64,000 nucleotides of DNA. Origin: Mytilus edulis (taxonomy: Eukaryota). Below are positions 21,427 to 52,446 of this stretch, piece after piece (the first letter of the stretch is position 1; the number at the start of each line of letters is the position of its first letter). Location: the NCBI RefSeq assembly GCF_963676685.1, contig NC_092354.1, forward strand, positions 45,384,001 to 45,448,000, read 5' to 3'. The notes beneath the pieces are model-generated. The model saw only the letters and a program-made list of their open reading frames with translations. It did not search any database and was not told the DNA's origin. The position numbers were made by a program, and so were the translations under genes.

Positions 21427-21924
21427 ATGTTCAACAATAGCAGAAAACCACTGAAACAAGGAAAAACACCAGCTAATTATCATCAAGAAATTCAATGCGA
21501 TATTGAATCGGCCTTCGACAATTTAGATCTTTTCACAAAAAAAACAGACAACGTTATAAGCTTCAAACCCGATCACCCACCATCGTATCCAGTTGATAAT
21601 AACGACACCACAATACCATACGTTGAAGACCAGCCTTTCTTTCAATCATCGCCTATTCATTCCAACAAAAATCACTTTCTTTCGTCGTGGACAGGACAAC
21701 CTACTTTGCCATCCAGTATCACTTCATTAAGACCATCAATTGTACACCGGCCATCGATTCCATCAACGTTTGCTAAAAGACCGGCACCTACCACAAATTC
21801 ACTTCAAACGCCACAAAATTTTTCATCATTGTATCCTACCCTACCAATTTCAACTACAACTTCAACAACATCACAAATTTCTTCAACAGTGACTGCTACA
21901 ACATCCACAACAGTTCCTACTTAA
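21427..21924 (+). pseudogene. S/T/P-rich N-terminus of probable gag, truncated by internal deletion
   Basis: ATG directly after the PBS; low-complexity sequence; directly abuts the integrase C-terminus; duplicated at 48023. Confidence 0.55.
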
Positions 21925-22390
21925 TTTAAAAACACTTAGGCCAGTTAAATCATTTATTCATGCAAACAGACTTAAAGCTTATAAAGATCCAAAGGAATTT
22001 AGGCCACCTCCAAATCTTAGAAAAGATAATGAAGTTTTAGATAATGAACCTGGTAATATAAATCAACCAAATCCTAATAATTTAAATGAAGATTTAAATC
22101 CAACAGGAAATCCGGAAAATAACTCTCAAAGTGATGTTGATGAAGCAACATCAAGTCAAGGTCAAAACAAAAATGATAAATGGTATGAGGCTAGTAAATT
22201 ATTAAAACTAAAATGGATATCAGGAAAGAAACATTATTTAGTTCAATGGAAAGATAATTCAAACCCAACATGGGAACCGCAAGAGAATGTTAGTGAACCT
22301 TTAAAGATAGCATTTCATTCAGAAAAAGCGCGCAAAAGATTAAAAAGAAGACGTTTAAAAAAAAATGTTAAATTAATTTACAAAAGTGGC
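21925..22390 (+). pseudogene. C-terminus of Gypsy integrase with chromodomain (not in the ORF track)
   Basis: Hand translation IHANRLKAYKDP...KWYEASKLLKLKWISGKKHYLVQWKDNSKPTWEPQENVS. Confidence 0.8.
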
Positions 22391-22547
22391 ATGCAATTCA
22401 CAATCACATTAATCCACTTGACTACCTATATCAAAATTGTCCTTTCATTTAGACCACTGGAAAAATTTATCCCCAATCTTTTGATCTCCAGAAATCAAAT
22501 TAATTCTTTTTTTTTTTTATATTGTAGGCAAGTCAAGATTTGGATTT

Positions 22548-25125: not shown

Positions 25126-25754
25126 AATGACAATAGGTTCGCAACAAATAGTGATCACCCAGGTCAACCAAACAATCGTAACACTAATGTATACCCTTCT
25201 ACTTTATACTAATATTGTTTTTTCTATTTTCCCAGATATTGATATGCTAAAAGACGTAACCACCTTTTCGCCGGCCCAGCTCTGGTACAAATTATGTAAT
25301 AACCATACTGATATAGATTATTTAGAAGCCACAAATTATTTAGCTGATATCAATTTTGATCCATTCAATTATTCATTTCTTCAAACTGACTGTTTAGAAA
25401 TTTTATTTAAAAATGAAGAGTTGGATATACCATATAATGATTTACCCCCCCCCCCCCCCTTTTATGAGTTTATATAGTTCCTATTATGAAATGTTACACA
25501 AGCAATACATCAGACAACTTAGATACTTTCGTTAAATTTAAATTCTGTCAATCGATAAGTATATTATATTTACTATTTATTCAAAGTTTCTAATATATTA
25601 ATTTTTCTTTACAATATCGCAAGAGTAAAACATTCATATAGAATCCCCCTTCATTTTTAGACTCTCCTCGAATTTCCTACCTTCAAGTGCGCGAATAAAC
25701 GCGAAATACTTGTATACAAATAAAATGAAATCATCGCTGCCATTGTGATATGTG

Positions 25755-26038
25755 ACTACTAACGGGGGTTCTTTACCCCCTACAATACCTATTATAACCC
25801 CTATATGTCGAGCCCCTAGATACACAACCTCCATCTTATATGGGGGATAACTATTATAACCCCTATATTTTAAACCCCTAGATACACAACATCCATATTA
25901 TATGGGGGATAATTAACCCCAACCTTTCCAACACCCATATAACATCCAATGATATGGGAGTTAAATAACTCCCCCGACTTTAACATTCAAATGTTAAGGA
26001 GGTTAAATGGATTTTAAATGTTATTCAAGTTTGATACA
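25755..26038 (+). repeat. Left TIR, containing a 62-bp tandem duplication
   Basis: Reverse complement of 47221-47440 apart from scattered mismatches and the extra unit (25789-25850 / 25851-25912). Confidence 0.95.
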
Positions 26039-26255: not shown

Positions 26256-27293
26256 ATGGACAGATATCAATGTGGTTGTTTTTCTGAAACATTTCATGAT
26301 ACTTTTACTAATACTGATCAAATTGAACACAACAACATTTGTGGACAACACCCATCACAAGAATCAGCTAAAGAAGGCCATGACAAGAAATTTAAAATGG
26401 AACAGGTTATAGGAAAAGCTCGAGAAATGTTAATGGCACAAATGGATTCTGATAATGTGGCGCATCATTTGGCAACAAGAAACGTCATAACCGTAGAAGA
26501 TAAAAACAAAGTGTTCAAGATTAAATCTAAATATATGAAAGCTGAGAGACTTTTGAAACGTGTTATTGAGTCTAACAATTCATCTCTTCACCATTTGAGG
26601 ATGGCTTTAATCAAGGCAGACCAGAAAGATCTATTGAAGTATATAAGTGAAAGAAATGAGCAATACGTAGAGTTTGATGATGATGATTTAACCAAAAGCT
26701 TGGAAGGAAGGTGTATGATTCCGTTACAAGGTGATTCGTACGTTGTTGCGAAAACTTACAACGATAAGATTCTCATAAACATTCGTAATTATCGAAAAGT
26801 AGCTGAGAAGAAATATCCCACTAAACAAGGTGTGTCGCTTACACTCTCAAGATGGCTAAAGTTGAAATCTCAAAAAGACTACATTAACAGTATTTTTCAA
26901 CTTGTAACAGATGGCGAATCGGTAGACGAAGAACTTATTCACTTAGGCGGAGGAGTGTACGTGACACTAAATTCAAAATATCCTAATGTAGACCTAAGAC
27001 ATTTCTGGAAACCTGAGGATTCGGATAAACCCGTTCCAACCAAACGTGGAATAGCATTAAATAAAATCAAATGGAACAAACTTTGTGATGTCATGACTAT
27101 TATGACTGACTTTGTTCCAGAACTTAATAATGCTATCGTGTGTGAGTATACTCACTACAATGAAATGGAACTTCAGAAATGTTCTGAATGTCATCCATTT
27201 AGTGACGAAGATGAAGAGGAAGTATCTCAAAATCAGGAGGGGGATTTTCAGATAATGAAACCCATTATCATGCATGATCATGAATCTGAATAA
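26256..27293 (+). CDS. CARD - PC4 - PC4 - Cys/His-motif protein
   Basis: aa ~48-132 follow the six-helix CARD pattern. aa ~153-212 (INIRNY...YPTKQGVSLTLSRW) and ~228-285 (VDLRHFW...PTKRGIALNKIKW) match PC4/Sub1. C-x3-H...C-x2-C at the end. Confidence 0.85.
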   Translation: MDRYQCGCFSETFHDTFTNTDQIEHNNICGQHPSQESAKEGHDKKFKMEQVIGKAREMLMAQMDSDNVAHHLATRNVITVEDKNKVFKIKSKYMKAERLLKRVIESNNSSLHHLRMALIKADQKDLLKYISERNEQYVEFDDDDLTKSLEGRCMIPLQGDSYVVAKTYNDKILINIRNYRKVAEKKYPTKQGVSLTLSRWLKLKSQKDYINSIFQLVTDGESVDEELIHLGGGVYVTLNSKYPNVDLRHFWKPEDSDKPVPTKRGIALNKIKWNKLCDVMTIMTDFVPELNNAIVCEYTHYNEMELQKCSECHPFSDEDEEEVSQNQEGDFQIMKPIIMHDHESE

Positions 27294-27693: not shown

Positions 27694-28875
27694 TTGAACA
27701 CTATTACACCACAGAAAAACAAAATGACACAGAAGCAAAAGGAGAATTACGTTAAAAGAATATGGACAAACCCTAATCATCCTGGAGCTTTTGCTGGACC
27801 AGATAAATTATTAAAAGTTATACGTAGTGAAGGAAAATTTGACATAAGCAGAGCACATTTAAAAAAGATTTTAGCTAAAGAGGATACATATAGTGTTCAA
27901 AAACCTTCACGAAAAACATTTAGACGAAATAGAGTAGTTGTAGCAGGGTTGAATGCTCAATGGGACGGAGATTTAGCATCAATGGAAAATGTATCGAAAT
28001 ACAACTCAATGGAAAAATACAACTCGGATATTAAGTTTTTATTGATACTGATTGATATTTTTTCAAGATTTTTGATAGTTAAACCTCTAAAAGATAAAAA
28101 GAGTGACACAGTAACGTCTGCTTTAAAAGAGATTTTTAAAACGGGTAACAGGAGACCCAAAACTGTACGTTTTGATTTAGGCGGAGAATTTCAATCAAGT
28201 GTAAAAAAATATTTAAAGAAAGAAAAAATTAATGTATTTTACAAGCACAATTCTAAAATAAAAAGCAATTATGCAGAGAGAGTAATCAGAACGTTAAAAA
28301 ATCGTATTTATTCTTATTTTATGGAAAATCAAACATCTAAATACATAGATGTTCTTCAGAAATTGGTTAACAGTTACAACAACACACCTCATCAATCCTT
28401 GGGAGGGGCAACTCCTGCGTCTGTTACCAAAATAAATGAGGACGAAATAAGATATATACAATACCTAGTTAGAAAAAAAGCAAAATCTATAGAAGTAATA
28501 AAAAGGAAGAAGAAAAAACAAGTTTACAAATTCAAGATAGGAGATATTGTACGAATATCACAACTAAAAAGGGTATTTGAGAAAGGCTATCAAGAAAATT
28601 GGACATTGGAATATTTCAAAGTATCTAAAAGATTTAAAAGAGAAAACCAAGACATATATAAGTTGAAAGACACCCTTAATGACGACGTGAAAGGATCGTT
28701 CTATAGATACGAGGTACAGAAAATAGACCAATCACAGAAGAAACTGTACAAAATAGAAACTATTCTAAAAACCCGAAAGGTAGTAGGAAAAGAACAAGTA
28801 TTAGTGAAATGGTTGGGTTGGCCATCAAAATTTAATTCTTGGATTTTAAAGAAGTCGATCAAAGATATAAAATAA
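27694..28875 (+). CDS. Retroviral-like DDE integrase with chromodomain
   Basis: WDGDLASM, FDLGGEF, AERVIRTLK, YNNTPH and VLVKWLGWPSKFNSWI motifs. Confidence 0.95.
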   Translation: MNTITPQKNKMTQKQKENYVKRIWTNPNHPGAFAGPDKLLKVIRSEGKFDISRAHLKKILAKEDTYSVQKPSRKTFRRNRVVVAGLNAQWDGDLASMENVSKYNSMEKYNSDIKFLLILIDIFSRFLIVKPLKDKKSDTVTSALKEIFKTGNRRPKTVRFDLGGEFQSSVKKYLKKEKINVFYKHNSKIKSNYAERVIRTLKNRIYSYFMENQTSKYIDVLQKLVNSYNNTPHQSLGGATPASVTKINEDEIRYIQYLVRKKAKSIEVIKRKKKKQVYKFKIGDIVRISQLKRVFEKGYQENWTLEYFKVSKRFKRENQDIYKLKDTLNDDVKGSFYRYEVQKIDQSQKKLYKIETILKTRKVVGKEQVLVKWLGWPSKFNSWILKKSIKDIK

Positions 28876-28892
28876 TATGCTGTAATTGTTAG

Positions 28893-29339
28893 ATGTCATT
28901 CAAAGGCAAAATGAGTTTGATAATTGTTGTGTCTTCAGAAGATGGAAAAGGTTTATTTACCGATAACAAACCCTACGATTTCAGAGTTAAATTAAATCAA
29001 AGAATACGGTTGGATCATAATTGGGTGATCGCCATTACGGAATTTACTTCATCAGAACGTATCGATTCACATAAAAATCCTGAATTATTTATTTTTTCAG
29101 ACATATGCCAGAATAGTTTCATTGGAAATAACGAACATCCATTACTTAGAAGGACATATTTTGACAACGCAAAACAAAGAAACATTATTTACAATACTCC
29201 GTATTATATTCAGGTCAGACAGGGTGAAATACAACAAATTCATTTTTATATAAAGGATGACAAGGGACAAGATGCTTCATTTTTACAAGAGAAGGTGACC
29301 ATAACGCTTCATCTGAAAAAAAGATCCCCTTGTTCGTGA
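28893..29339 (+). CDS. Minor capsid protein (penton/PX), compact form
   Basis: FTDNKPYDFRVKL...WVIAITEF...LFIFSDIC...PLLR...IKDDKG...ITLHLKK pattern. Confidence 0.85.
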   Translation: MSFKGKMSLIIVVSSEDGKGLFTDNKPYDFRVKLNQRIRLDHNWVIAITEFTSSERIDSHKNPELFIFSDICQNSFIGNNEHPLLRRTYFDNAKQRNIIYNTPYYIQVRQGEIQQIHFYIKDDKGQDASFLQEKVTITLHLKKRSPCS

Positions 29340-29340
29340 A

Positions 29341-29838
29341 ATGAATAATTATCTAACAGATCCTCTCATCTGGAAAAGATTTCATAAAAACATGGAGGGG
29401 AATAAATTTAACGCATACAGTTACAGACGATTGAAAAGAAAAAATCAATTAGGACGGGGACTTCATGGTCGTTTTAGACATTCTTACATGATTCCTGTGA
29501 ATGTGAATGCAAACGACACCGAGACAAATTCCATCAGTACTACCATGGTATCACCTGTTGTTGCCTCAGAAGATAGGGCAACTTCAGAAATGAAGGACGT
29601 AAAAGAAAAGAAAAAAACCCATGTTAAGGTGTCGAGTATTATAAAAAGAAAAAACAAGAAAAAAAAGCTCAAAACGAAAAAGGAACGCAAACAATCAACA
29701 TCAAAAACAACCAAGAAGAGAACCAGACGAGCTTCAAAAAAGAAATTCAACAAAGACTATTACGATAACGTTTGGAGTTCAGTTTCTGTTAAAAAAAAAA
29801 AAGAAAACGATAAAATAAATTATGGCTTTTTTGAGTGA
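29341..29838 (+). CDS. Basic Lys/Arg-rich putative virion core protein
   Basis: Highly basic, has a QLGRG candidate protease site, and lies between penton and major capsid. Confidence 0.65.
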   Translation: MNNYLTDPLIWKRFHKNMEGNKFNAYSYRRLKRKNQLGRGLHGRFRHSYMIPVNVNANDTETNSISTTMVSPVVASEDRATSEMKDVKEKKKTHVKVSSIIKRKNKKKKLKTKKERKQSTSKTTKKRTRRASKKKFNKDYYDNVWSSVSVKKKKENDKINYGFFE

Positions 29839-31129
29839 AGATAATAAGGAAATTGGCCTTCCAATGGAACTTTCAATATTTGCTTCTCCCCCTAACCAAG
29901 TGGCCATAGATAAAATAACATATACAGAGGAAAGGCCAATATCTAATCTGATTAATGATTCCACACCCATTGAAATAGTAATCTCAGGAGCTGGTAATGA
30001 TTACATTGACTTGAGAAAAAGTCGTCTTTTTGTTAAATTACAAATTTTAAAAGAAGACGGATCTTACCTGCAACCAAAAGAAAAAACGGGAATTATTAAT
30101 TTACCGTTACAGAGTATGTTTTCACACATTGATGTATACATGAACAACAAATTAGTATCGGCTAATTCTAACAATTATCCATGGAAATCGTACTTCAAAG
30201 TTATACTGTCTTCGGGAAGCGATGAACAAAATTCTCAACTTCAAAGTCAGCTTTTTATGAAGGATGATGACCCTATGGATTCGTTGACATTAAATGCTGG
30301 ATATGTTAACAGATATGAATACACAAAAGAGTCTAGGACATTCGAATTAGAAAGTAATTTGATGGAAGATGCATTACTTTTGGATAAGTACTTGATTAGT
30401 GGCGTGGACATTTACATGAAACTGTTCCGTTCCAGTGCTCCTTTTTTACTGATGTCCGGAGAAGCAAAACCAAATTACAAGGTTAAAATATTAGACGTGT
30501 TCTATAGAACTGCTAGGGTTAAAGTGGATCCGGGTGTTATTTTGAATCATAGGCGTCAAATTCAAGAATCTCCAGCTAAATATTTGATTAACAGAAGTAA
30601 CGTAATACAAAATGTCATACCTCTAGGATCAACAGAATTTTACTGGGATTCTTTATTTCCGAAATCTCTACCTTCTAAAGTTGTGTTCGGACTTGTTCCT
30701 CAAAAGGCAATAAATGGTGATTATACGGCCAATCCTTTCAATTTTCAACACTTTAACATGTCATGTATTACTTTGAAAGTCAATGGTGTGGAAGTGTATG
30801 GATCACCTCTTAACATGGATTTTAGCAACAACAGAAATTACACAGCAGCATATGTAAGACTTTTTGAAATATGCGATAAATGGCAGAAGGATACAGGATT
30901 AAATATTTCTTTGAATGATTTTGGGAATGGTTATACGTTCATAGTGTTTTCCTTAGATCCTTCTGATTTCCAAGAAGATTTTCTCAATTTGGTAAAACAC
31001 GGAAATGCTCGATTAGAAATACGGTTTAGCGTACCCACAACAGAGGTTGTGAATTGCATGTGCTATTACCAATCGCAAGCCATTTTGACATGTGACGAGA
31101 CAAGAAATATAAACATAGTGGAACCATGA
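29822..31129 (+). CDS. Double jelly-roll major capsid protein (PY/hexon)
   Basis: ELSIFASPPNQ, YIDLRKSRLFVK, NNYPWKSY, NPFNFQHF and GNARLEIRF motifs; 435 aa, intact. Confidence 0.93.
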   Translation: MAFLSEDNKEIGLPMELSIFASPPNQVAIDKITYTEERPISNLINDSTPIEIVISGAGNDYIDLRKSRLFVKLQILKEDGSYLQPKEKTGIINLPLQSMFSHIDVYMNNKLVSANSNNYPWKSYFKVILSSGSDEQNSQLQSQLFMKDDDPMDSLTLNAGYVNRYEYTKESRTFELESNLMEDALLLDKYLISGVDIYMKLFRSSAPFLLMSGEAKPNYKVKILDVFYRTARVKVDPGVILNHRRQIQESPAKYLINRSNVIQNVIPLGSTEFYWDSLFPKSLPSKVVFGLVPQKAINGDYTANPFNFQHFNMSCITLKVNGVEVYGSPLNMDFSNNRNYTAAYVRLFEICDKWQKDTGLNISLNDFGNGYTFIVFSLDPSDFQEDFLNLVKHGNARLEIRFSVPTTEVVNCMCYYQSQAILTCDETRNINIVEP

Positions 31130-31563
31130 ATGCAAGAGAACTGATCGTTTTTTTAAAAGACTTTAAATGTTTAAATAAAGTATCTATCTGTATAAGTGAC
31201 ATTAATGGTTTGCCTGCTACCGTTGTGAATCACTACCCTCAACTATTTATTATCAATCCTGGAAAACATTGGTTGTGTGTATTTTTCTATGACTCTACAA
31301 AAGCTGAATATTTTGATAGTCTGGGAAAATGTGTAGAGTTTTATGGAACTAATTTAGCAAAGTTTATAAGCAACAACGCTAAAGATTGTTTTTCAATACA
31401 GAGACAATTACAGTCTAACACTTCAGATATTTGTGGACTTTATGTTGTATGTTTTGTAGTGATGAAAGTATGTTATCAATTTTCAATTTAAAATTTTAAT
31501 GATATGTTTACTGATAATGTATTTGAAAATGACCAATTCATTAAAATGTTTTTTTCTAAATAA
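31126..31563 (+). CDS. Adenain-like cysteine protease with a probable premature TAA at 31489-91
   Basis: GKHW / YFDSLG / LQ...CG catalytic motifs. The frame continues past the stop as NFNDMFTDNVFENDQFI to TAA at 31561-63. Confidence 0.88.
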
Positions 31564-31639
31564 ATATTAGATGTAAAAAAAAAAAAAAAGTTTTGTTCTT
31601 TTTACGAGGGGTCTTCTCTGATATGAATATAAAACTCAT

Positions 31640-32329
31640 ATGCGACGTATCGTCTTCATTTTAAACAAAGTCATGGAGAAGGAACACACTCTTCTTCCTT
31701 TTTCATCTCCAACCACAATATATATCTCTGGACCAACTCAAGCAGGTAAATCGATTTTTACTAAAAAACTTATAGAAAATGCTGACGTAATGTTTACCAA
31801 ACCACTGGAAAAAATTTTATATGCATATTCCGAATATCAACCATTATTTGACGACATTCAATCGTCCAACTTAATATTTCATGAAGGTCTGCCTGATAAA
31901 CAGAAAATAGAAGAATTTACTCAAGATACTCAACATTCGTTAATCGTACTGGACGATTTGATTTCTAAAGTAGTACAATCAGAGGAAGTTTTACATTTAT
32001 TCGCCGTCACTAGTCACCACAAAAAGGCATCAGTGGTCCTTATTTCACAATCTTTGTATCCTCCAGGTAAATACTCAAAAAGTATTTCCCTGAATTGTGC
32101 TAATTTTGTCTTGTTTCACAATCCTAGAGACATGCGTCAAATTGTAACGTTCGCATCACAAATACTTCCAGGAATGACTCGATATTTCTTAGATGCATTT
32201 TTGAAAATTACAAAACAGAAGTATGCATACATACTTATTGACCTCTCGCCTCATAGAGAAGACAGACAATACATGCTTAGAACGGGTATTTTTCCAGGTG
32301 ACACCTGTATAGTTTACAAACCTATATAA
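31640..32329 (+). CDS. A32/FtsK-like genome packaging ATPase
   Basis: Walker A GPTQAGKS, Walker B LIVLDD, SHH and NPRD motifs. Confidence 0.95.
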   Translation: MRRIVFILNKVMEKEHTLLPFSSPTTIYISGPTQAGKSIFTKKLIENADVMFTKPLEKILYAYSEYQPLFDDIQSSNLIFHEGLPDKQKIEEFTQDTQHSLIVLDDLISKVVQSEEVLHLFAVTSHHKKASVVLISQSLYPPGKYSKSISLNCANFVLFHNPRDMRQIVTFASQILPGMTRYFLDAFLKITKQKYAYILIDLSPHREDRQYMLRTGIFPGDTCIVYKPI

Positions 32330-32331
32330 AA

Positions 32332-32676
32332 ATGCATTCTTGTTCGTACGATCATTTGGTGATAATGAGCAGGCGAATGAGGTCAAATGCTGTGTTTCTG
32401 AAGTTTTTATACGAAGCTGGTACAAACCAACGAGTTGCAATCTTATCAAATCTGACTAAACCACAAATCAGTGTTCTATCTGAAGTAGCTTTAAATATTT
32501 ATAAAGGAGTATTCCCCAACAAACAAAAATACGTCAAGTCATTAAAACCATATAAATCCATTGTGTACCAATTGGGAACAAAATCAGTAGGAGTGCGAAA
32601 AAAGAAACAATTATTGATTCGTCATAATAAACTAATTCCTAGTTTGTTAAGACCTGTTATGGATTTTTTGCAATGA
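32332..32676 (+). CDS. Conserved small basic Polinton protein (PW-like)
   Basis: QRVAIL...LSEVALNIYKG...KKKQLL pattern; follows the ATPase. Confidence 0.7.
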   Translation: MHSCSYDHLVIMSRRMRSNAVFLKFLYEAGTNQRVAILSNLTKPQISVLSEVALNIYKGVFPNKQKYVKSLKPYKSIVYQLGTKSVGVRKKKQLLIRHNKLIPSLLRPVMDFLQ

Positions 32677-33033: not shown

Positions 33034-36000
33034 TCATTTGTTGCAACAGTAACCGAAAGGTAAAGTAGTTAAGTCATTTAACAATCTTCTCTTTGTATAT
33101 ACCATTCTGTACTCCTTTTCCTCAATCCTGTTGTATAATTTCCTTTTACATGCAAGTCGGGAAATTTTACGCGGATTGGTAGTCTTTATTGTTTTGATAG
33201 TTTTATTCACCACTACGTCACAAATAGATGAAAAATTTATTAGATCTGAATTCATCTTATTGTCTAACGAAAAACCTCTCACTTTACACTTTTCATTGCC
33301 CGATGCCAATCTGTAGGCATAATTCTTAGGTCCTCCGGCCACAAAATGTGTGATGTGTTTATCCTCAGGTGAAATTTCATTTGTTAATTGTCCTAAGTAA
33401 TTGCCAATAGGAAGTGTTTTTGAGATAATTTTATCTTTATCACAAAAGATGATCGAGTCTGTGTCTACATACAATGTGTTGTGACCCACTTGTTCCATAA
33501 CGTTGTAGAGCTTGATTCTGGCCCAACAGGTAGTAAAAGATGCTATGAAGATGTTGGTTTTAACGTCTATGGGGATAAAAGGGGTCTCGTGTACATGTTC
33601 TATTTGTATGAAATCTTTACTAATGATATGGAAATCTTTTACATCCTTCCGGGGATCTGAGAGTAGCTGAAAGAACTTATCTCCCTCGTGTTCGTGGAAA
33701 AACTCTGTTTGCCTCATATTTAAACGTTGACCAAACTTGCCCCAAAAACTATTTAAACATATTTTTGCCAAACTACGGAGTCCTGGATTCTTTTTTATAT
33801 TATCATAATCTAAATGTATTCCCTCGTGTTTTGCGTAATCAGCTATATATTCCATCTTTTCTTGATCTGTTTTACACTCCTGTGGGAAACCTGATGCTTC
33901 CTGTTTAAATTTCAAAAATAGATTGACGTAGGCATCAAAAAGGCCTCCCACACCCGTAAAAGGATCATGCTTTTTGAATTCTTTAAAATGATACACCTCG
34001 TATATTTTAAGGATTTCGTATCCTTTGGAAAGAGCCAGCTCCACTTCAGGAGTACACCATGTACCAACAATGACTCTCTCGTCATTGGTGCATGTGCAGT
34101 CGTTTTGGTTTTCATCATCGGCACACTTTTTGCAAAGTGGAAACTTTAATTTTCCATTGGAAACGTATGGTAAAACGGGATGAAAAAGACGTCTGTGGGG
34201 TAAAATCTTTACTTTAACCACCCCAAAATACTTGGAAATATCTTGAAAATTCGATGTTATGATAACTGGATGTCCTATGGGGTATTTAGCATACTTGTTG
34301 ACGCTAGGATACAAGCTGAAAAATAAAAGAAGGAAATTATCAACTAAGTAACCAAACAATGTAACATAAAAGAGTTCTGAATATACAAATGAATCAAAAA
34401 CAGTACTTATTACATTATTTTATATTACCTTGTGAAATCATAATATTCAATTGTCTCTCCTGGTTCTGCGCATTCATGGTACAGTTTAATTCCGTTAGTC
34501 CTTCCGCCATAAAAGCTATCCCTTACATTTAATCGGTCTGTAATATCTAATGTAGAAACTAATTCTCTCATTTGGTCATCTGTCGACATTAATTGATGAA
34601 ATTCGTGCTCCCAGATGCACACATACTCGTATCCTAGTCGTATCAGTTCCCTTTCTTTCTGTTTGGTCATAATATATAGTTCGGCCATCGAATGTTTTGT
34701 CTTCGGATGAGTTGTCTTTGTTCTATCATGGGGAAAGCAGGAGGGACAACCATGGAAACAACAACCTGAAATCATTAATGATAATAAGAGGGTTTACATC
34801 AATCAATGCGCCGCATTACTTTAACAATCGTTATTCAGTTGTAATAGGTGGGAATCGTTTTGATCGTCTTGAAAGAAATCGATAAATAATAAGAAAAAAT
34901 ATAATAAATTTATAAATATATAAACAATATAATAAATTTATAAATATATAAACAATATAATAAATTTATAAATATATAAACAATATAATAAATTTATAAA
35001 TAATATTGTCGCCGCCGCCTCCTATGCCCTTAATTATTTACTCACCTAAAAATTCGTATGCCGTTTTCTTTGGAGAATGGACATAACCATCTAGTCTAAA
35101 ATTCGTGCCTGGTACTTTGTGTTCTCCTCGACCATTTAGTGCGTGTTGTATGTGAATTGGTTTTCCTGACCGTCTACTACGCTCCATTGTCCATTCCAAC
35201 CATTGGATTGACACTTTACTGAAATTGTCTCTTGATACGTAACCCTCTGACGGAACTACTGCAATGGGACTTTTAACGAAAACTGTTCTTCCAATTGTGT
35301 ACGCATTAGACGCATCTATCGTTTCCTTTAATACCCATTCACCGTCAGGTAATTGCACTTGAAGTGAACCGTTCACAAATTTCGAGGGACACTTGAGATT
35401 TGTGTTCTGGGTTAAATCCGTCACACACGTTTCATATTCTTCCTCTAGGAACAGTTGCCTGTAGATGGCTTGACAGACAGAAGCAATCGTGATGTAATTA
35501 AACGGATCTATACCTTCGGCGTGCGTTATTATTTCGCCTTTTTCGTTAGTGTCTTTTACAGATGTCACGTCAATCATAATTTTACGAAACTCCATACATC
35601 CTCGCCTCAAAATATCTACATCTGATACGCAATAATTGTACATCTCCGACTGAAAGTCAAATATTTCATTTTCTTTTGAACGGTACCAATTCCAAAATAA
35701 TTGGGCTTCTTCTTCTCCCATATAATCGACTCCATAATATGATGCAGCCGGATAAGGTCCTTTATATGATTGGTGTTCTTGGGTGTTGAAGAGGTGTGGG
35801 AAGTGACCCTTCTGAAGCTCCTGAAGACCAAAGCATTGTGGAATCTTCGATAACTTCATATTGATAAAGTTGATAGAATCGAGAAATGTAAGGTCTAAGT
35901 TTTTCGAGACATGCATATAGACAATCTTTGAGCCATCGAAGATGATTTTATCGGGTTTTACACTGTGATGATCTATGAGTGCATTGAGTAGGGGGTAGTT

Positions 36001-38601
36001 GTCGAAACCTTTGGCGTTGTGTGCTATGAGAACCGTGTTTTTGTAATGGGGGGTCATGATGTGAGAGCAGAATTCGTAAGGTACGTTGTTACCTCTAAAC
36101 ACCCTCTGTCTGTAACCGCAACCATCTTTACAAGGTAAAATCCTTTTGTTCTTTTTTACTATTCTACAGTTTTCACAGCGACTCCCACAAACGTCACACT
36201 TAGAGTTTATCGTTAAATCATCGTTTTCACAAAGGGTACAAGTAGATTGCAAAACAGCAAAATTTACCTTGTGCTCATTTAGTCCACACCAAGACTGATG
36301 ACAGTTGATGCAAATTTTACAAGAGTTACATCTCGTTTTCATAGCACATTTCGTTTTACAAGGTTGGCTGGGTACGTAACCATTAGAACATTGTTCTTCA
36401 TATCTACATCTGACCTCATAACAGTTCGTACACATTTTGCATTTTTTACACCTGTCTGTTGTCGAGCATTGTTTCTCGCACGGTTCGCCGAGCAAATGAC
36501 CTTCACTACAGACCATTTGTTCATTTTGTGTTGTTTCAAAGTCGTAAAAAAAATATTTCCTCGGTTCCTTTTTACTAGAATTCCAAATAGATTTCCGCTG
36601 ATAACACAAATGGTCTCCTAATTGATATTGGAAACAATTTTTACATTTCCATTCCCCGCATCTATGTTGTTCGGGTGCTCGTTTGTTTCTTTCTAGGACT
36701 TTTTTACAAGTTTCACACTGGTAAAACCTTTCGCACATTGATTTGTCGCAATCATGGCCTCTGATGGTTTTAAGGGAGTTGTGTCTTTTATAACACGCTT
36801 CACTACGACATGTTCGGTGGCAGTCTGAACAAGTAACTTGATCGTTACTGATCTTACATTGATGACTACCGCAAACGTCACATGTTTCGCTACAGGAGTG
36901 CCTCCCCTTGTTTTTATACGGGGTTAAACAGTGCGAACAGAAATAGCCAAAACCAAAATAACCATTTATACTCCCTATGGCATCGTAATGTCCATTTCCA
37001 TCTGCATCACCCGTAAGGTACAGGTAAATGTTTTTACGTTGGGAGTTATTAGCCACACGATAAAATTTGTTGCCTAATTTTGAGGATAACACCAAAATAT
37101 TGAGGTCCAATAGGTTTTCAAAGCTATGAATGTCTCTAATGCTTAGGGGTTTGTCAGTTGGAAGATTTGCTTCTTTACATAAGGTTAATGCCATGGTTTT
37201 ACTGTAAGATTTATTATTCACAGCGGAATCACTCACGTGTTTGTAATAACTTTTGGTAGTCATGCCATGTTTCAAGACTTTTTGAAAAGTGTTCATGTTG
37301 GGGTCATCGTCTTTTGTGATCTCTCTCCATTTGTTCAGGGGAACGACTTCGCAGAGCTTTAAAAAACATCTACCAATCGCTGTTGCCATACACATTTCGT
37401 CGTTATTCGATACCTGTAATAATGACTTTTTTAGGGCAATTGAATTACGGGTCCCTTTGAGTCTTGTTATGGGTATCGTACCACTCCCACTAGGTACTGC
37501 AATGCTCCCTATTGTGACTTGCATAGCTGTATCCAAGGGTAAATTTTCGTCGGAATTTAGGACGTTTTCTACTGCATCCATGACCCTTTGCGAGTTAATG
37601 TTGGACCAGTTATCCAATGGTACGACTATCGAATTATTCAATTCGGGATGTGAAATGATAACTCTTCCGAGGTCATAGTCATTTCCTCTGGCCCTACCCA
37701 GTACGTCATCGAACATACCCCCAAGTTCGTTTTGAAGATTGCGCATTTTTTTATTTTTCCAGGTATCTTTGAATTTTACTTTGTATGTAGTCTCACGGGC
37801 TAAATTTTTGGAGAAGGTTTTCTGTCCCGACATTTGAAATAAATAAGGTAAATCTTCGTTGTCGTTACCACTCCCCCTTTGTTCGATGTCATCCATAGTC
37901 AATGTGATATTAGGGTCGATACTGTTTTGAAGGGACGTGTGTACACCTTGAATAACACTCCCACCCTCTTCAAAGTTGTAGGGGGTAGCCATGTAATTTG
38001 TCGTTATAGCATCCATGTCCATTACGTTCGCATCCACCCTTTGATTCAAGTCATCCATGGTATATACTATATTTTGGTTCAAACCATATTGAAAGTGTGT
38101 TTGTGATTGAGGGTCCATATATTGACTAGCAGTAGCTCTGTAAGTGATGTGGGAGTGACTTGTTGATGGCATATTTATGTCTTTGATATTTTGAATAACA
38201 TTAAAGTCGTTTAAAGCATCCAAATCGAAATTAATGGCTAGGTCATCTGAATTTGAAAATGTATTGATGTCATCTATAATTTGGTGAAATTCCAAATGAT
38301 CTTTCAATTCCGATGATAAGTTGAATTTAATATAACACTTTTGACATGTCAACAAAAATGATAGTCTGTCTAAAACTTGGGAGTTGTTTAAAAGGCAGTT
38401 ATCTGTAGCCCAACTTATTAAACTGTCAGCATCTGTAAATGTGTTCAATGTATATGTCAAATTGAATGACAGAAAGTGTCTGATCCTATTTTGTATCAAA
38501 GGATGATTTATTAGGTCATTGTCTAATGCCCATTGCTGCAAGTCCTCTAAAGATGTAAAATCCTTGACAATACTGTTCAAACTTGGTGATTTATGCTTCA
38601 T
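33034..38601 (-). CDS. polB: Protein-primed family B DNA polymerase, 3 exons (38601-35046, 34765-34429, 34315-33034; 1724 aa)
   Basis: GT-AG splicing restores AYEFLG/CCFHGCP and YYDFTS/LYP. ExoI YDFET, ExoII HNAKGFD, ExoIII YCVSDV, KICLNSFWGKFGQ and YVDTDS all present. Confidence 0.95.
34899..35003. repeat. 28-bp AT-rich tandem repeat in polB intron 1
   Basis: AATATAATAAATTTATAAATATATAAAC repeated about 3.7 times. Confidence 0.9.
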
Positions 38602-38847
38602 TGTTTTTGGTTTTGTCCATTTACTGAAAAATATTTGTTATTATTTGGTTTTATTTCTTTGGTATTTGTATTTGCTTGATTCTGTTAAGATAAAAAAAAA
38701 AGTGATACCACTATTCTAAATTTTTAGTTTGATTTTACTAAAAGCAAAAATATTTGAAATGTTTACTTACCTTACATTTCATATGTTTCCATTCAAATAA
38801 AATCTTGTTGATTTTACTTGGTTTTATAACCCCTAAAATCATGTCAT

Positions 38848-39338
38848 AATGTTAAGGTTTAAGTATTCTGTGTCATGACCTTGGATACAGTCCAATGAGT
38901 TTTACATAATAAAATATTGTTGTATAATTGTACTGTTTGTATGAGGTAATTTTAAGGTTCAATAATTCTGTGTCATGACCTTGGATACAATCCCATGAGT
39001 TTTACATAAAATATTGTTGTATAGTGGTACTGTTTGTATGAGGTAATGTTAAGGTTCAATTATTCTGTGTTGTGACTTTGGATACAGTCCAATGAGTTTT
39101 ACATAACAAAATATTTGTATAGTGATACTGTATGAGATAATGTTAAGGTGCAATTAGTCTATCATGTCATCATGACATTGGATACAGTCCAATGAGTTTT
39201 ACATCATAAAATATTGTTGTATAGTGGTACTGTTTGTATTAGGTAATGTTAAGGTTCAATTATTCTGTGTCATGACCTTGGATATAGTCCAATGAGTTTT
39301 ACATAATAAAATATTGTTGTATAGTGGTACTCTTTGTC
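38848..39338. repeat. Five ~100-bp tandem repeats upstream of polB
   Basis: Units start at ~38848, 38948, 39045, 39139 and 39245; core TTGGATACAGTCCAATGAGTTTTACAT. Confidence 0.9.
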
Positions 39339-39765
39339 ACACATTTTTTTTTCTTAATTATAGATAAATGAAGACATAATGTTCATAATGGTTTTAATCA
39401 AAATATATACATTCATCATGAAACAAACATACATATTAAAATGCTTTTGGTTATGGAATTTCAGGTAAAGGAATGCAATATATTTTAACAAATATCACAT
39501 TTATCTTCAAAACCTACAATATTAAAATAACTGTTCATAATTTTGTGTGTTTTTTTTTAATTTCAAAATCTTATATTTAAAGAATATTTAATAAACAATA
39601 ACCAAGTAACTTCTTATCAAACTAAATTAATTATTTTCCCCCTATGTTTCTTTTTATAAAACAAGTATTTGTTTAACAAAGCAATTACAGACATAGTGAT
39701 ATCAGAATTTCTTGGAAATTGTATGGCCATATTAGTCTTGATATATTTGGGATGAACACAAATAA

Positions 39766-40246
39766 ATATCACATTACCTCCATGTTGTACACAACTAATT
39801 TATAAAATAAAACTTCCTCAATAATAACTAAGTATTATTATTATTTGAGATCATTTCTTTAAAAAACAACGTATGAGTAAAAATCACCTGAGTAACATTT
39901 TAGCACCAATTCTTTAACACACAAAAAAAAAAAAATATCACATAACCTCCATGTGGTACACAACTAATGATTGTATAAAATAAAACTTCCTCAACAATAA
40001 CTAAGTATTATTATTATTTTGAGATCATTTCTTTAAAAAAACAATGTATGAGTAAAAATCACCTGAGTATAACACACAAAAAAAAAATATCACATAACCT
40101 CCATGTGGTACACAACTAATGATTGTATAAAATAAAACTTCCTCAACAATAACTAAGTATTATTATTATTTTGAGATCATTTCTTTAAAAAAACAATGTA
40201 TGAGTAAAAATCACCTGAGTAACATTTTAACACCAATTCTTTAACA
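39766..40246. repeat. Three ~150-170-bp tandem repeats
   Basis: ATATCACAT(T/A)ACCTCCATGT unit at ~39766, 39935 and 40087. Confidence 0.9.
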
Positions 40247-41345: not shown

Positions 41346-41834
41346 TTACAAGGCTGCTTCTAACTGTTTCTTCTTGTTGCGGGTTCTGATGGCCACTGGT
41401 TCATTCAGTTCTACCATTTCCATGGGTGGAGCAGACGGTTCGGGTGATGAGTCTCTGTTTTCAAAAAAAGTAGTAGGTGAATCTGATGTTGGTAAGGGTA
41501 TGGTGTGTTCAATTGGTGTAGACTCAAATGAAAAAACAGGAAGTCTGTCTATGGAATAGTCGGGTGTTGATGTCGGAGGTGGAGTGAGTGATGGCGGGAC
41601 AGTAGAGGAAATCATACTCAAAAAAGAGGTCTGTGTTTGAGATATCTGGTGTCTGTCAGCTGTTATGGTGGTGTTGTCTAGCGGTTGGTGTAATGGCAAA
41701 TATGTAGTGTTTCGTTTCAGTTGTAGTATCCATTTCAGGACAGACAAGAATGTAAACATCCCAAAAATTCCACACCCTGCCCAGAATGCTGTAAAACAAA
41801 TTTATATAAATATAAATTAAACATATCATCAGAC

Positions 41835-41870
<36 letters not shown>

Positions 41871-43629
41871 AATTTTATACATGTCTGTAAAATCATATCT
41901 CATATATGTTTACTCCATTGTTTTACTAGTACTATTATAAATGAGAAAAAGTATTCAGTTATCTCCCTTTATTGATGCATGCAGGGGAGATAATTAAATC
42001 CCTTTAAGATATAGGGGGTCATAAGTTTAGATGTTTGAGAGTGACAACAAAACAGGTTCAAGATATCCATTGTGTTCCAGCAATCAAAGTTCTTCTGTAT
42101 TTAAAGAGACATAACTTAAGTAACTATAGATGCATACCTATCATAGCAGTTTCCATGGTGCTTGACATCTTGTCACCATATTTCATTATTGTTTTGTCCT
42201 GTACTGAAATAATAAAAAAAAAATATTATAAATAAATCATTACTATGTTGTGTAGGGCCCTTTCAAAAAAAAAAACCTGCTCAATAATCAAAATGTTCCA
42301 TTTACAGAGTTACTGGGATAAGTCCTCAATTGGCAAGAAACCTCATGTTAAAATTTCAAAGTTATATTAAAAACTGATGTGTCCACAGACACTGACAACA
42401 CTAACACAGACATAGACTGTCCCACATACCATAATACAACCATTTTATTTTCAGTCATATAAAAACCTGACCCCCAACCATTGTAGAGAAACCATTTGGA
42501 GAAATGTCATGCTCTGTACAGTATAAAGTTCTATATAATTTGATAAGAGTAGGCATCTTGGTAAAATTTACTGCCCCCAACATTTTACCATCAATCCCCC
42601 TTTTAAAAAAAAAAAACATATTGTACTGTATATAGCTGAAGTATTACTCATTAATAATTGTATAATAAAATCTTACTTTGATTTGTAGTCAGTGTTGTAG
42701 ACTTTTTCTGTTTGTTAGTCATTTCCAATTGAGAATTCTGTAAAACATTGTCTGGTACTACAAAATAAATGAAAAAAAAATTAATAAAACATGTTTAATT
42801 CCTTCCTTAAAAAAAAAACCACACACAAAAACAAAAACAAACTGGCAGTATCTTACTTAAGTATTGAATATTAATAATCATACTTAAATAATAAATCTTA
42901 CCATGAACTGTAGTTATTTCCTGTTTCCTAGTTGTTTTTTCTTCCTCTGGTAAAATATTGTCTGGTACTGTAAAATAAATGAAAAAAAAAATCTAATACT
43001 GGAACTGATTGAAAACTTGTTACAATCTCACATGACATTGAAAGAGAAATTTGATATTTCATACCTAGTTTTAAAATAAATTTGTTGGAAATGTTCCCAT
43101 GGAATTATAATTTTGATCACTCACACTTACTGCAAAAATCAACTACAAAATTGTTTAATTATGCACATACAGAATACATTCCATGGGACATGAAGATCAG
43201 ATTTATTTATCCTTCAACTTTATAATAATTCCTTGTCAGGAACTGGTCGGATGCCCTTAGAGTTATTCCCCCTTTTTTTTAATTTTCGAAATAAGGCAAA
43301 CTGTTGAAATCGTTAGAATGGTTGGACTTTAAGACATAAATCTTGTGAGGGTAATCATAAAACTTACCACATTCTATCTCATTGCAAAGCCAATTGCATA
43401 ATTTGTTGAACACGTGTACCACTGTTGGCGGTTGCTCTTGTGCCTTAAGAAAATTGATAGTACAATTACAACTTTCCGACTGAATTTCAATAATTCTGAC
43501 GTTTTGAAGAATGTTTATTTCTGTACTACAGAAGCAGTTGGCAATTGCCGTTTCATATTTACAATCTATCTGTCCTTCTGCGTTTAAAACTAACAATAAC
43601 ACAAGAAAATGTACGATCCAAAATGCCAT
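41346..43629 (-). CDS. Five-exon type I membrane protein, 305 aa (exons 43629-43368, 42967-42902, 42757-42677, 42203-42138, 41788-41346)
   Basis: All four introns are GT-AG and phase 1, and the joined 918 nt is open. Signal peptide, Cys-rich domain, Thr-rich stalk, TM AMIAFWAGCGIFGMFTFLSVLKWIL, and S/T/P tail with PSAPP. Confidence 0.85.
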
Positions 43630-46492: not shown

Positions 46493-46945
46493 TTAACTTC
46501 TGTAATAAATAACTCTTGTTATATACTGTATTATAGACCTCAAATAGTCCCATTGTCTTTGTGATAAGGATATTCCTTTAATAGTAGGTTTATTGTTCAA
46601 AAATTGACGAATGTCTATAATTGTTCTTTTGTTGTATTCACACACAGTTAACATAAATTCACCAGGTAGACGGAAATGTTTAATATAAGAACACAATGAT
46701 TGGTTAAAAGTAAGGTTCTGTTCATTTATATCATAGTTGGAAACATTCATGTTATGCTTTGACATGTTTGATGACAAATATAAACTACCAGTTATCCATA
46801 GGGTAGATGCTGTAAATATGAATAGCACTATAACACCTGTCCATTTCAGTACATTTATGTGAATTTCATATTGATGGTACATATTCATTAAACTTGATGT
46901 GACACTATTTTGTGGTGATATTGAATTGATTCTGGTATGAGACAT
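46493..46945 (-). CDS. TM-anchored PC4-domain protein (150 aa from the first ATG)
   Basis: TM WTGVIVLFIFTASTLWITGSLYL, sequons NMS/NVS/NLT/NQS, and IIDIRQFLNNKPTIKGISLSQRQWDYL PC4 motif. Confidence 0.8.
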   Translation of the reverse strand: MSHTRINSISPQNSVTSSLMNMYHQYEIHINVLKWTGVIVLFIFTASTLWITGSLYLSSNMSKHNMNVSNYDINEQNLTFNQSLCSYIKHFRLPGEFMLTVCEYNKRTIIDIRQFLNNKPTIKGISLSQRQWDYLRSIIQYITRVIYYRS

Positions 46946-47220
46946 GGTTAATTTAAATAGTAAATCCTTTCTGTTAGAATTCAAAAATATATATAACCTT
47001 ATAGAGTTTAAACACACTTTTATAAAATATTGTTGAATTGTCAGTTATATATTTGTATTCCTGATTGGTTAAACAGAAACACCTCCCCCTTAACTTTAAA
47101 TTGGTAAAAAAAAAAAAAATTGGAGTAAATATACATAAGAGAAAATCTTATCATTATATATTCTGGATGTAACAAATGGGACATGCCCCTCAGTACAAAA
47201 CTTAGATGTTGGATATAAGT

Positions 47221-47440
47221 GTGTCAAACTTGTATATCATTTAAAATCAATTTAACCTCCTTGACATTTGAATGTTAAAGTCTGGGGGTTATTGAACTCC
47301 CATATCATTGGATGTTATGTGGGTGTTTGAAAGGTTGGGGTTAATTATCCCCCATATAAGATGGAGGTTGTGTATCTAGGGGCTCAACATATAGGGGTTA
47401 TAATAGATATTGTAGGGGGTAAAGAACCCCCGTTAGTAGT
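47221..47440 (-). repeat. Right TIR
   Basis: Ends ...AAAGAACCCCCGTTAGTAGT, complementary to the left end. Confidence 0.95.
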
Positions 47441-47446
47441 TATGTG

Positions 47447-49383
47447 TATAGATTATACAAAAAGAAAAAAAAATGTCCCTTGTTTAGGCATGAAAGGGAA
47501 AATCGTTAACGTCATGGAAAGTTAACTAGATCTTAATTGAATGATATATTATAATGATCATTGTGTTTAAAATAGTCATTTAATAAAGTATCTTTATGTA
47601 CATCTGTAAATATTTGAAGGCCTTTAAATCATTGATTTATGTTATATATCCATTTAATTGTATTTTATGTTTTAATTTTTTTCATTGTGTATTTTATTGT
47701 ATTATATATATATGTATATGAAAAAAAAAAATAGAAACAAACAAAACAAAGAAAAATATTGTGTTATTATTGTTGGTTGTTTCATGGTGTTAGTAAATTT
47801 AGATTGGTGGAACAATCTCCTTTTCAAAGGGAGAGCGATTATTGTAATAGAAAAATGTACTGTATTTGATTTCATATAGTTACTAATTAATACATGTAAA
47901 ATCTTCTGTGAAAAATATTTTATAGTCAATTATTGTTTAATATACTTTAAAGCCAAACTTTCATGTTTAATTGGTGAACATAAGAAACAACAAATCGTAA
48001 CACAATAGAATGGTAGAGGACAATGTTCAACAATAGCAAAAAACCACTGAAACAAGGAAAAACACCAGCTAATTATCATCAAGAAATTCAATGCCATATT
48101 GAATCGGCCTTCGACAATTTAGATCTTTTCACAAAAAAAAAAACAGACAACGTTATAAGCTTCAAACCCGATCACCCACCATCGTATCCAGTTGATAATA
48201 ACGACACCACAATACCATACGTTGAAGACCAGCCTTTCTTTCAATCATCGCCTATTCATTCCAACAAAAATCACTTTCTTTCGTCGTGGACAGGACAACC
48301 TACTTTGCCATCCAGTATCACTTCATTAAGACCATCAATTGTACACCGGCCATCGATTCCATCAACGTTTGCTAAAAGACCGGCACCTACCACAAATTCA
48401 CTTCAAACGCCACAACATTTTTCATCATTGTATCCTACCCTACCAATTTCAACTACAACTTCAACAACATCACAAATTTCTTCAACAGTGACTGCTACAA
48501 CATCCACAACAGTTCCTACTTAATTTAAAAACACTTAGGCCAGTTAAATCATTTATTCATGCAAACAGACTTAAAGCTTATAAAGATCCAAAGGAATTTA
48601 GGCCACCTCCAAATCTTAGAAAAGATAATGAAGTTTTAGATAATGAACCTGGTAATATAAATCAACCAAATCCTAATAATTTAAATGAAGATTTAAATCC
48701 AACAGGAAATCCGGAAAATAACTCTCAAAGTGATGTTGATGAAGCAACATCAAGTCAAGGTCAAAACAAAAATGATAAATGGTATGAGGCTAGTAAATTA
48801 TTAAAACTAAAATGGATATCAGGAAAGAAACATTATTTAGTTCAATGGAAAGATAATTCAAACCCAACATGGGAACCGCAAGAGAATGTTAGTGAACCTT
48901 TAAAGATAACATTTCATTCGGAAAAAGCGCAAAAGATTAAAAAGAAGACGTTTAAAAAAAATGTTAAATTAATTTACAAAAGTGGCATGCAATTCACAAT
49001 CACATTAATCCACTTGACTACCTATATCAAAATTGTCCTTTCATTTAGACCACTGGAAAAATTTATCCCCAATCTTTTGATCTCCAGAAATCAAATTAAT
49101 TCTTTTTTTTTATATTGTAGGCATGTCAAGATTTGGATTTGTGACTTTGCGATTTTTGCTTTACTTTTGTCAACGTCAAACGCAGATGAACATAGAATAA
49201 ATTATGGAATAATATTTCAAAATCAACCTTATATTGACTTTGCTACAGATTATTGGACACATATTTATGAAATCCCAATGTATTTGAACATAAAACATAA
49301 ATTGGTCACTAAATGTCCAAAACAGGCAGGTCGTCAATGTCATTCGTATAACAAAATTGTTTCACAAGTAAATTATATAAGAG
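47447..49383 (+). mobile_element. Continuation of the Gypsy-env tandem unit: 3' UTR, PPT, LTR 47843-48002, PBS, gag N-terminus, chromodomain, env 5' end
   Basis: Near-identical to 20850-22700; env reads on past the SINE site (IPMYLNIKHKLVTKCPK). Confidence 0.9.
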
Positions 49384-49698
49384 TGAGTGAGTGAGTGTTG
49401 GTTGCTTTACGCCCCATTAGCACAAAAAGGCTATATCGCGGCGAGAGCTAATTCGAATATTTTTACAATTTAAAGCATATTTTTAAAATAAGACAAAAAG
49501 TCCTTCAATATACTAAAATTCTTGACTAAAGCAAATTGAGTATATACAAATAAAAATCAACAGTAAAATAACGTGATAAAAATTAAAATCGATTTAAATA
49601 TAATAACATATTTATATTCTATAATAAATTCCAATTTCTTTTAAAAAAGCAACAATATTTGTAAATGGAACATTATTAAATAAATCATACATATTATT
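49384..49698 (-). mobile_element. 5'-truncated LINE 3' end (I/Nimb-like) with (ACTC)n tail
   Basis: Minus strand reads LFNNVPFTNIVAFLKEIGIYYRI*, then a UTR and a tetranucleotide tail that interrupts env. Confidence 0.6.
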
Positions 49699-51208: not shown

Positions 51209-52446
51209 CTAGTAATTAACTTCTTTAAATCTTCCATCTTCAAAATTAATTTGTGCATCTTGTATAACAAACAGATAAACATTTATTGATTCATCTGCTC
51301 CTACCTTTTTCGTTATTTGGATGGTAATACTTTCAGAGGCATTTTCAATTTTTCTTCCTGAACCGTGTAATGAGTTATCATCTGTTGAACGTAAATCTAA
51401 CCATAATGCGAAATTATCTGTTAAATATTTTTCTAATGTTGTATAAGAGAAACATACATCTTTTAAAACTGCTTCTGTTGTTTTATTTCTTTTTGAATTT
51501 AAAGAAAAGAATTTATTTATTTCATCCCATTGTTGATATGCTTTCATTCCTTGACTGTATAGTTGATTTGGAACACCTCCTATTGTCATTTCTACTTTTG
51601 TTATGTTAGGATTATAATAAGTGTCTGTACTTGTTCTTTTAGGATCTTCGAACAACATTAGAATTCCTTTCATACTTCTAGCTGGAACATTTAAATTAAT
51701 ATTCCACAATGTATCAGATTTGTTTTTGGTTATTTTTCTATGTCTTAGTATTCTATCGTACAAAATAACCATCTTACCATCAACTTGTTGTCTTATCTGT
51801 CTTGCTAATTCTGTATCAGAAACCATATCAAATTCTAAACAAATGTTTTTGATTTGATAACTTTGTTGTAGTCATTGAATGTAAGTTCATATTCAAGTCT
51901 ATCACCAAGACCTGCTTGATAAAAAGGCATATGAGTTTCTAGTAGTTCAAAATCAAGTGGGATACAAAATTTTGCACCATATGCAGTTGCAATTGCTTCA
52001 TCGCCTGTGTCTGCTGCTTTATCATCCGCGTTAACTCTGTGTTTTAACATGTTTGTTTCACCAATACCTAAGTATGCCATATTTACACGTTCAGATGTAG
52101 ATTTCCATAAATCAACATAACAATGATAAATATCACTATCATCAATTGACATAATTTCATTTCCACTTATACGAATTGTTTTTTTTTTAACTATTGCTCT
52201 TCCTATGTTTTGATATATAGTTGCATTGTCGTCTGTAGATGTGAGTTCTATTTCGAATGCCAATCTGGTTGTTCCAGGAACAATGACATCATTATTGCTT
52301 AGATTGGGGAATCTCACTAATAGCTGTTGATTTTGATCAATAGTTGAAGGATTATTTGTTATTACTACACTTTGACGAATACCTTTCACACCACGGGGTT
52401 CTCTTATTTTTCTGTAAGGATTTAATTTGTTTCCGTATGCCGACAT
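51209..52446 (-). pseudogene. Major capsid protein of a different Polinton-like lineage, split by a frameshift
   Basis: The two ORFs join at KVIKS / IKNICLEFDMV to give ~410 beta-rich aa. The C-terminus FALWLDLRSTDDNSLHGSG...ITIQI resembles a jelly-roll capsid end. No evident close similarity to 29822-31129. Confidence 0.7.

Follow-up and report, generated by a model that had tools for sequence, protein, structure and literature searches.

A spliced gene for a predicted type I membrane protein with a PSAP-containing tail in a Maverick of the mussel Mytilus edulis

Whether and how animal Mavericks/Polintons form particles and leave the cell is a standing question, no virions having been observed according to the available text of PMC8097293. 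In a 64,000-nucleotide stretch of the M. edulis genome (contig NC_092354.1; hereafter, the window), the original prediction had joined two apparently unrelated ORFs through three micro-exons (66, 81 and 66 bp) into a gene for a 305-aa type I membrane protein, located it inside a Maverick and noted a PSAP late-domain motif in its tail. The locus raises the questions of whether such a gene exists, whether it belongs to the element or is a host passenger, and what its product might do.

Gene structure, transcripts and product

The exons are, in window coordinates:

43629-43368, minus strand: exon 1 (262 nt), predicted signal peptide (residues 1-19) and 8-Cys ectodomain (C23-C87)
42967-42902, minus strand: exon 2 (66 nt), stalk
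42757-42677, minus strand: exon 3 (81 nt), stalk
42203-42138, minus strand: exon 4 (66 nt), end of the stalk and first TM residues
41788-41346, minus strand: exon 5 (443 nt), most of the predicted TM helix and S/T/P-rich predicted cytosolic tail

The four introns (400, 144, 473 and 349 nt) all present GT..AG ends, phase 1 and pyrimidine-rich acceptors, and every exon is open in the carried-over frame, which amounts to 918 nt coding for 305 aa plus a stop. The acceptor region of exon 3 is a duplicate of that of exon 2 (41 nt, 93%). The one-gene model, for which RNA junctions over the four introns had been named as the check, is confirmed by these canonical introns and by a single 696-nt contig of RNA run X14 that crosses the four joints at the predicted exon ends; in addition, a contig of run X6 (presumed RNA) crosses joint 4. 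The listed joints are supported in these two of the four runs aligned, and raw reads over the gene numbered 12 in X21 and 0 in X24, with no listed joint in either. The gene cannot be called hidden, as it had been, since an identical protein is already annotated at NCBI: P0001 (XP_071140096.1, CAG2232033.1, VDI57138.1; 305 aa) equals the exon translations along its full length and is filed as uncharacterised in M. edulis and M. galloprovincialis, with relatives 91-99.7% identical in M. galloprovincialis, M. trossulus and M. californianus.

Hydropathy analysis disclosed two hydrophobic windows in the protein (residues 1-23 and 155-182) and a single predicted TM helix (about 158-179) followed by basic K/R residues. 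The eight Cys lie between residues 23 and 87, with an N-glycosylation sequon at N55, and together with W80 they are invariant in 17/17 aligned rows. The predicted type I layout (signal peptide, eight Cys, stalk, TM and tail) is upheld by the hydropathy and the family alignment from which the signal peptide and TM calls derive. Two details need rewording: the TM helix said to be assembled across the exon 4/5 junction does draw on both exons, but mostly on exon 5, exon 4 providing only the first few residues, and the stalk described as Thr-rich is only moderately so (Thr in 12 of its 71 residues, as counted from the sequence).

Concerning the fold of the ectodomain, a profile search retrieved no PDB sequence at E<=10, PHROGs gave no match and the ESM Atlas yielded no usable feature match, the family C domain (see below) giving only leads under 0.9. 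A first structure model was discarded as unusable (pLDDT 40). The second, built from 17 rows, reached a pLDDT of 69 and displayed five short strands; its best Z among 48,161 chains was 3.2 (beta-helix-type proteins), and Foldseek returned no match at E<=0.001 in BFVD or PDB. These results establish neither a new nor a known fold.

The host element and its relatives

The surroundings of the gene are organized as follows (window coordinates):

25755-47440, no strand assigned: Maverick/Polinton (element A), 21.7 kb, with TIRs at 25755-26038 and 47220-47440 and TSD TATGTG
17223-25754 and 47441-49391: LTR-type element (protease and env-like ORFs) that is partly duplicated and served as the Maverick insertion target
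27724-32676, plus strand: integrase, putative minor and major capsid proteins, protease, packaging ATPase and small ORFs
33034-38601, minus strand: protein-primed DNA polymerase B (pPolB), downstream neighbour of the membrane gene (PF03175, E=6e-19)
46493-46945, minus strand: gene with a PC4 domain and a hydrophobic segment, next to the membrane gene on its upstream side in several copies

As predicted, the membrane gene is inside a Maverick, enclosed in a 21.7-kb element bounded by TIRs and a TSD. The insertion site is a duplicated stretch of the LTR-type element, and the window also contains an uninterrupted copy of that sequence. At a distance of 0.5 Mb there is a second insertion, 99.4-99.6% identical and flanked by a TSD of its own (AACGAC), in which the last exon of the membrane gene carries a frameshift ahead of the PSAP motif. 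The integrase matched chromo and, below cut-off, rve (E=1.6e-6), and the A32-like ATPase and cysteine-protease matches were weak (E about 6e-4). For the two proteins that we take to be capsid proteins from their size and gene order, no match was found in the family libraries or PDB. No fusogen-sized ORF was seen in element A. The pPolB gene is read not as broken but as split by two predicted GT-AG introns (window 35044|34766 and 34428|34317, minus strand), which occupy the same sites in the sister element B; the first site is also used in family H (predicted). In this respect the mussel element would differ from vertebrate Mavericks, to which the available text of PMC8097293 attributes intronless core genes and variable accessory regions.

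Several other features were observed. A CARD and PC4 fusion gene is present at the left end of the element (window 26256-27293), and both this gene and the right-end PC4 gene recur in related families; the CARD of the fusion gene may make contact with host immune or death signalling. The element ends are ACTACT...AGTAGT (window 25755-25760), and family C begins with AGTAGT, the common vertebrate end motif. The interval from pPolB to the membrane gene contains tandem repeats of about 100 bp and 150 bp (38846-39337; 39760-40246). A satellite-like array with a unit of about 275 bp occupies window 1-5600, and pieces of a second Maverick type (integrase, minor-capsid-like) and of another capsid-like gene pair are at 14996-16547 and 51209-52446. 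Capsid-candidate matches in the M. edulis genome number about 100 and belong to many families.

Genome searches located 14 copies of the last exon in M. edulis, 11 of them beside Maverick genes (10-40 kb examined) and usually with PC4 upstream and pPolB downstream. Sister element B carries a syntenic four-exon version with phase-1 introns (database model P0014), and the ATPases of elements A, B and G, those that could be placed beside the gene, group in a single clade (support 100/99 among 12 rows). In M. trossulus, a gene model joins exons 1-3 to a Maverick pPolB, so that the linkage extends to a second species. The alternative is that the element picked up a host gene, which is neutral cargo and does nothing for it. 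This reading could appeal to the spliceosomal introns, as in the nematode Maverick cargo genes described in the accessible part of 10.1101/2022.07.12.499685, and to the other three last-exon loci, around which the 10-30 kb examined contained no Maverick gene. However, exon 1 is missing from all three and decay is visible in two, genome searches found no intact copy outside a Maverick, introns are also present in the pPolB of the element itself, and all named relatives are from Mytilus. It is also opposed by the selection between elements A and B, for which the membrane gene gave a pS of 0.76-0.88 (saturated) and a pN of 0.34-0.40. We consider neutral cargo, already largely refuted, very improbable. 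The suspicion that the gene could be a host passenger is set aside by the 11 loci beside Maverick genes, the lack of exon 1 in the Maverick-free ones and the synteny in B; the gene appears to be inherited within one Maverick clade (A/B/G) and, as a spliced and selected Maverick accessory gene, it is real. As to their distribution, 12/14 last-exon loci are on contig C11, the others being the C12 and C4 copies, and there are several orphan exon-1 fragments without a start or with stops.

A spliced type I membrane gene unrelated to this one is predicted near one end of the elements of families C, E and F:

L047:~3200-4752, minus strand; L085/L087; L056/L032; L078:7360-7674: unrelated spliced type I gene (4-Cys)

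In these families, the predicted layout is a signal peptide, a 4-Cys domain, Thr-rich small exons, a TM and a short PSAP-free tail, and no homology was detected between the 4-Cys domain of families C-F and the 8-Cys domain (hhalign probability 0.2%). Family C has 22 near-identical copies and no PSAP gene, family F showed no Maverick core gene in the 30 kb examined, and families H and I yielded no detectable spliced membrane gene. In five loci (L047, L087, L032, L070 and L081) the membrane gene of these other families is followed by a small hydrophobic ORF ending in LRRS.R..P.RL, which in our judgement recalls chromatin-binding motifs. Because families C, E and F carry a different spliced type I gene, a spliced surface-protein slot seems to be recurrent in Mavericks, and PSAP seems to be the mark of one clade and not a general requirement for Maverick spread.

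Tail motifs and possible roles

The tail contains three conserved motifs:

41691-41702, minus strand: YLPL, juxtamembrane, with YLP[LI] in 6/6 lineage representatives
41418-41447, minus strand: SPEPSAPPME block with PSAP at 41427-41438, identified by conservation and a Gag_p6 match below cut-off
41376-41399, minus strand: PVAIRTRN, basic motif near the C-terminus, with P[VI]A.RTR in 6/6 lineage representatives

We take YLPL to be a YxxPhi-type endocytosis motif. PSAP (residues 276-279) agrees with the P[ST]AP consensus and is on the predicted cytosolic side, the topology coming from hydropathy only. The block is HIV p6-like, with Pfam Gag_p6 matching the single protein at E=0.0014 and, as the only Pfam match, 3/10 aligned members at E 0.0036, both below cut-off. 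No PPxY or YPxL partner late motif is present in the protein. Because P[ST]AP appeared in 2.7% of 200,000 tail shuffles, the motif alone is weak evidence, and it is its conservation that carries weight.

A profile search of 1.84 billion representatives, which selected matches partly by tail similarity, gave 17 matches. Sixteen of them were looked up: nine are named, all from Mytilus, and seven are unnamed Logan/ENA records. For P0020 the best-matching stretch was the ectodomain, and PSAP is present. Word-based homologue searches returned P0001 as the sole result, IMG/VR scans no relative of the membrane protein or of a capsid candidate, and a JGI metagenome scan 307 pattern matches with none confirmed. 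Across six protein lineages with 28-60% identity, the eight Cys plus Trp, YLP[LI], SPEPSA.P and P[VI]A.RTR were all found in 6/6. Canonical PSAP is in 5/6, or in 5/7 when the orphan tail at C11:60539, a seventh lineage reading SPKPSASP, is counted; lineage P0032/P0033 and its C4 copy in the M. edulis genome have PSAS, and P0021 has YAS. Moreover, one X6 contig bears CAC (His) at the fourth proline position, giving PSAH at a depth of 6, and the motif is absent at the end of 2/6 cluster members (P0002 and P0005). Positions S273, P274, E275, P276, A278 and P280 are invariant and P279 is not: the final proline of PSAP is its least stable position (Ser in two lineages, His in one RNA contig). The conservation of PSAP across copies, which had been named as a check, is partial: the motif is selected and kept in 5/7 lineages, but not in the two lineages with PSAS or in the RNA contig with PSAH.

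Between elements A and B, the exons of the membrane gene are 39-45% identical and seven other genes 59-89%, so that it is the fastest-changing among the genes compared. Within its tail, SSPEPSAPPME is nonetheless identical in 11/11 residues with six synonymous codon differences, as against 35% identity in the rest of the tail, the chance of such an 11-residue run being about 1e-3. In 1.37 Gb there are 10 stretches of DNA that encode PEPSAPP, versus 0 for the reversed control, and 9/10 belong to the Maverick membrane gene family, the remaining one (PEPSAPPPDY) to a host single-pass protein. The exon of the latter (L114:1084-1599) encodes a membrane protein with a Cys-rich cytosolic stretch, and by its sequence this PSAP beside PPxY is a typical ESCRT-sorting pair.

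On the basis of its motifs, the tail reads as a trafficking module in which motifs for endocytosis and for ESCRT-I are followed by a basic end. According to the available text of PMC8402826, viral and host adaptors bind the TSG101 UEV domain through P(T/S)AP. The mussel UEV aligned with the human one without gaps (E 1e-58). In this comparison, the residues that we take to form the TSG101 pocket (T58, Y63, Y68, N69, T92, M95, P139, V141, F142 and S143) are all kept in the mussel. TSG101-like UEV loci were found at least three times on C10 (50.0-50.9 Mb, L098-L100) and also on C2028, and TSG101 may be duplicated in the M. edulis genome.

It is likely, judging from these motifs, that the tail would bind host TSG101 through PSAP and that progeny particles would leave in host vesicles. 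As a whole, we tentatively favour as the best reading, by analogy, that of an exit adaptor which recruits TSG101 in the manner of bluetongue NS3 or hepatitis E ORF3, and rank it above the others because accessory PSAP membrane proteins give non-enveloped viruses a vesicle-cloaked exit. Precedents come from the non-enveloped bluetongue virus, whose membrane glycoprotein NS3 buds with PSAP/TSG101 (available text of PMC7409164), and from hepatitis E ORF3, whose cytosolic PSAP is linked to Tsg101 and quasi-enveloped release (available text of PMC6307819). With the gene model, the spliced RNA, the PC4-pPolB position and the selection on the tail motifs observed directly, we infer the steps beyond splicing. 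The protein would go via the secretory pathway to the cell surface, YLPL would bring it back to endosomes and PSAP would recruit ESCRT-I, and the basic P[VI]A.RTR end might bind capsid, DNA or chromatin and so tie particles to the budding membrane; the small, presumably disulfide-bonded domain on its stalk would coat the vesicle and possibly serve for attachment to target cells. Against a strict late domain stand the PSAS of 2/7 lineages, the single PSAH and the lack of a second late motif.

A host modulator like those of adenovirus E3 comes a close second, given that no other gene compared in the element is as variable and that this one is clade-restricted. The ectodomain would bind a surface receptor or immune molecule of the host, which YxxPhi, alone or together with PSAP, would drag to endosomes and lysosomes; the outcome would be superinfection exclusion or a dampened immune response, perhaps brought about from the integrated state. 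We hold this role possible. It fits the A versus B identities given above, the unrelated membrane gene that replaces this one in other families, the better retention of YLP[LI] (6/6 lineages) than of PSAP (5/6) and the likeness to E3/49K, which is type I and polymorphic and is sorted by a YxxPhi motif (available text of PMC11321000). The stretch is also present in 14 RNA or presumed-RNA runs from eight studies, of which X14 and X6 were aligned; among the 24 runs listed, those aligned were X6, X14, X21 and X24, and the word shares of the other 20 are no evidence. However, Pfam, PDB and fold searches disclosed no homology or fold match to E3 or any receptor, the gene is weakly expressed (12 reads among the 1315 Mb of X21, 0 in X24), and the viral P(T/S)AP motifs in the available texts of PMC8402826, PMC7409164 and PMC6307819 are all tied to release. 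An unlikely third reading is that SP.PSA.P.E and the basic RTR bind a TRAF/USP7-type domain, a proline-directed kinase or the nucleosome, as a signalling mimic or a chromatin-membrane tether, PSAP being incidental. The invariance of the block around the changeable P279, the persistence of P-x-E and RTR where PSAP is lost (P0032) and the LRRS.R..P.RL ORF that ends the cassette of other families would agree with it, but the TRAF6-type PxExx(acidic/aromatic) pattern fits only 2/6 lineages, such motifs carry little information, and PEPSAPP is also found in the ESCRT-sorting pair of the host protein.

Extending the exit adaptor further, mussel Mavericks could be quasi-enveloped viruses in which the glycoprotein of one clade links capsid or genome (through RTR) to TSG101 (through PSAP) and buds particles into vesicles coated with its small ectodomain of unrecognised fold, other clades having independently filled the slot with a different spliced glycoprotein. 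We regard this broader proposal as doubtful; if true, it would provide a concrete exit route for elements without observed virions. An expressed and selected surface protein with endocytosis and late-domain-like motifs offers, in any case, a handle for a TSG101 assay and a marker for particle-bearing haemolymph vesicles.

Comparison with known systems

Among the papers listed by literature searches, none joining Mavericks/Polintons with PSAP or a late domain was found. The one envelope-type Maverick gene found described is the nematode fusogen MFUS-1 (available text of 10.1101/2022.07.12.499685), which resembles the mussel protein in being Maverick-encoded and in having a signal peptide and a single TM, in a system where spliced accessory genes also lie near a TIR. 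It differs in its 866 aa and herpes gB-like fold, the mussel protein having 305 aa and an ectodomain of about 68 aa. A fusogen of the MFUS-1/gB class (10.1101/2022.07.12.499685 and 10.1101/2023.08.22.554363, in the parts available), for which an ectodomain of several hundred residues would be expected, was rejected on this account. The PLA2X, GasderminX and Cupiennin of adintoviruses are likewise animal Polinton accessory genes predicted to act on membranes but, according to the accessible part of PMC8502044, they are enzyme, pore or venom homologues and not spliced type I glycoproteins with sorting motifs.

Adenovirus E3/49K and the CR1 family are polymorphic accessory type I proteins with a YxxPhi tail (available text of PMC11321000), from a virus group related to Polintons. 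The mussel protein shares the type I topology (predicted) and the YxxPhi motif; it shows no match to the CR1 domain or fold (model pLDDT 69) nor any other sequence or fold match, has an ectodomain of about 68 aa and adds PSAP and the basic RTR. If its role were immune modulation, Polintons would carry E3-like spliced accessory glycoproteins that annotation has filed as host genes.

Hepatitis E ORF3 is similar as an accessory membrane-bound protein with a cytosolic PSAP (available text of PMC6307819), but it is palmitoylated, wholly cytosolic and has no ectodomain. No homology was detected between the mussel protein and the NS3 of bluetongue virus, an orbivirus and thus an RNA virus. NS3 carries PPRY in addition to PSAP and contains two TM segments, whereas the mussel protein is single-pass, with a signal peptide and an 8-Cys ectodomain and without PPxY. 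The likeness is in the arrangement: NS3 is a membrane glycoprotein of a non-enveloped virus that engages TSG101 through PSAP in non-lytic release (available text of PMC7409164).
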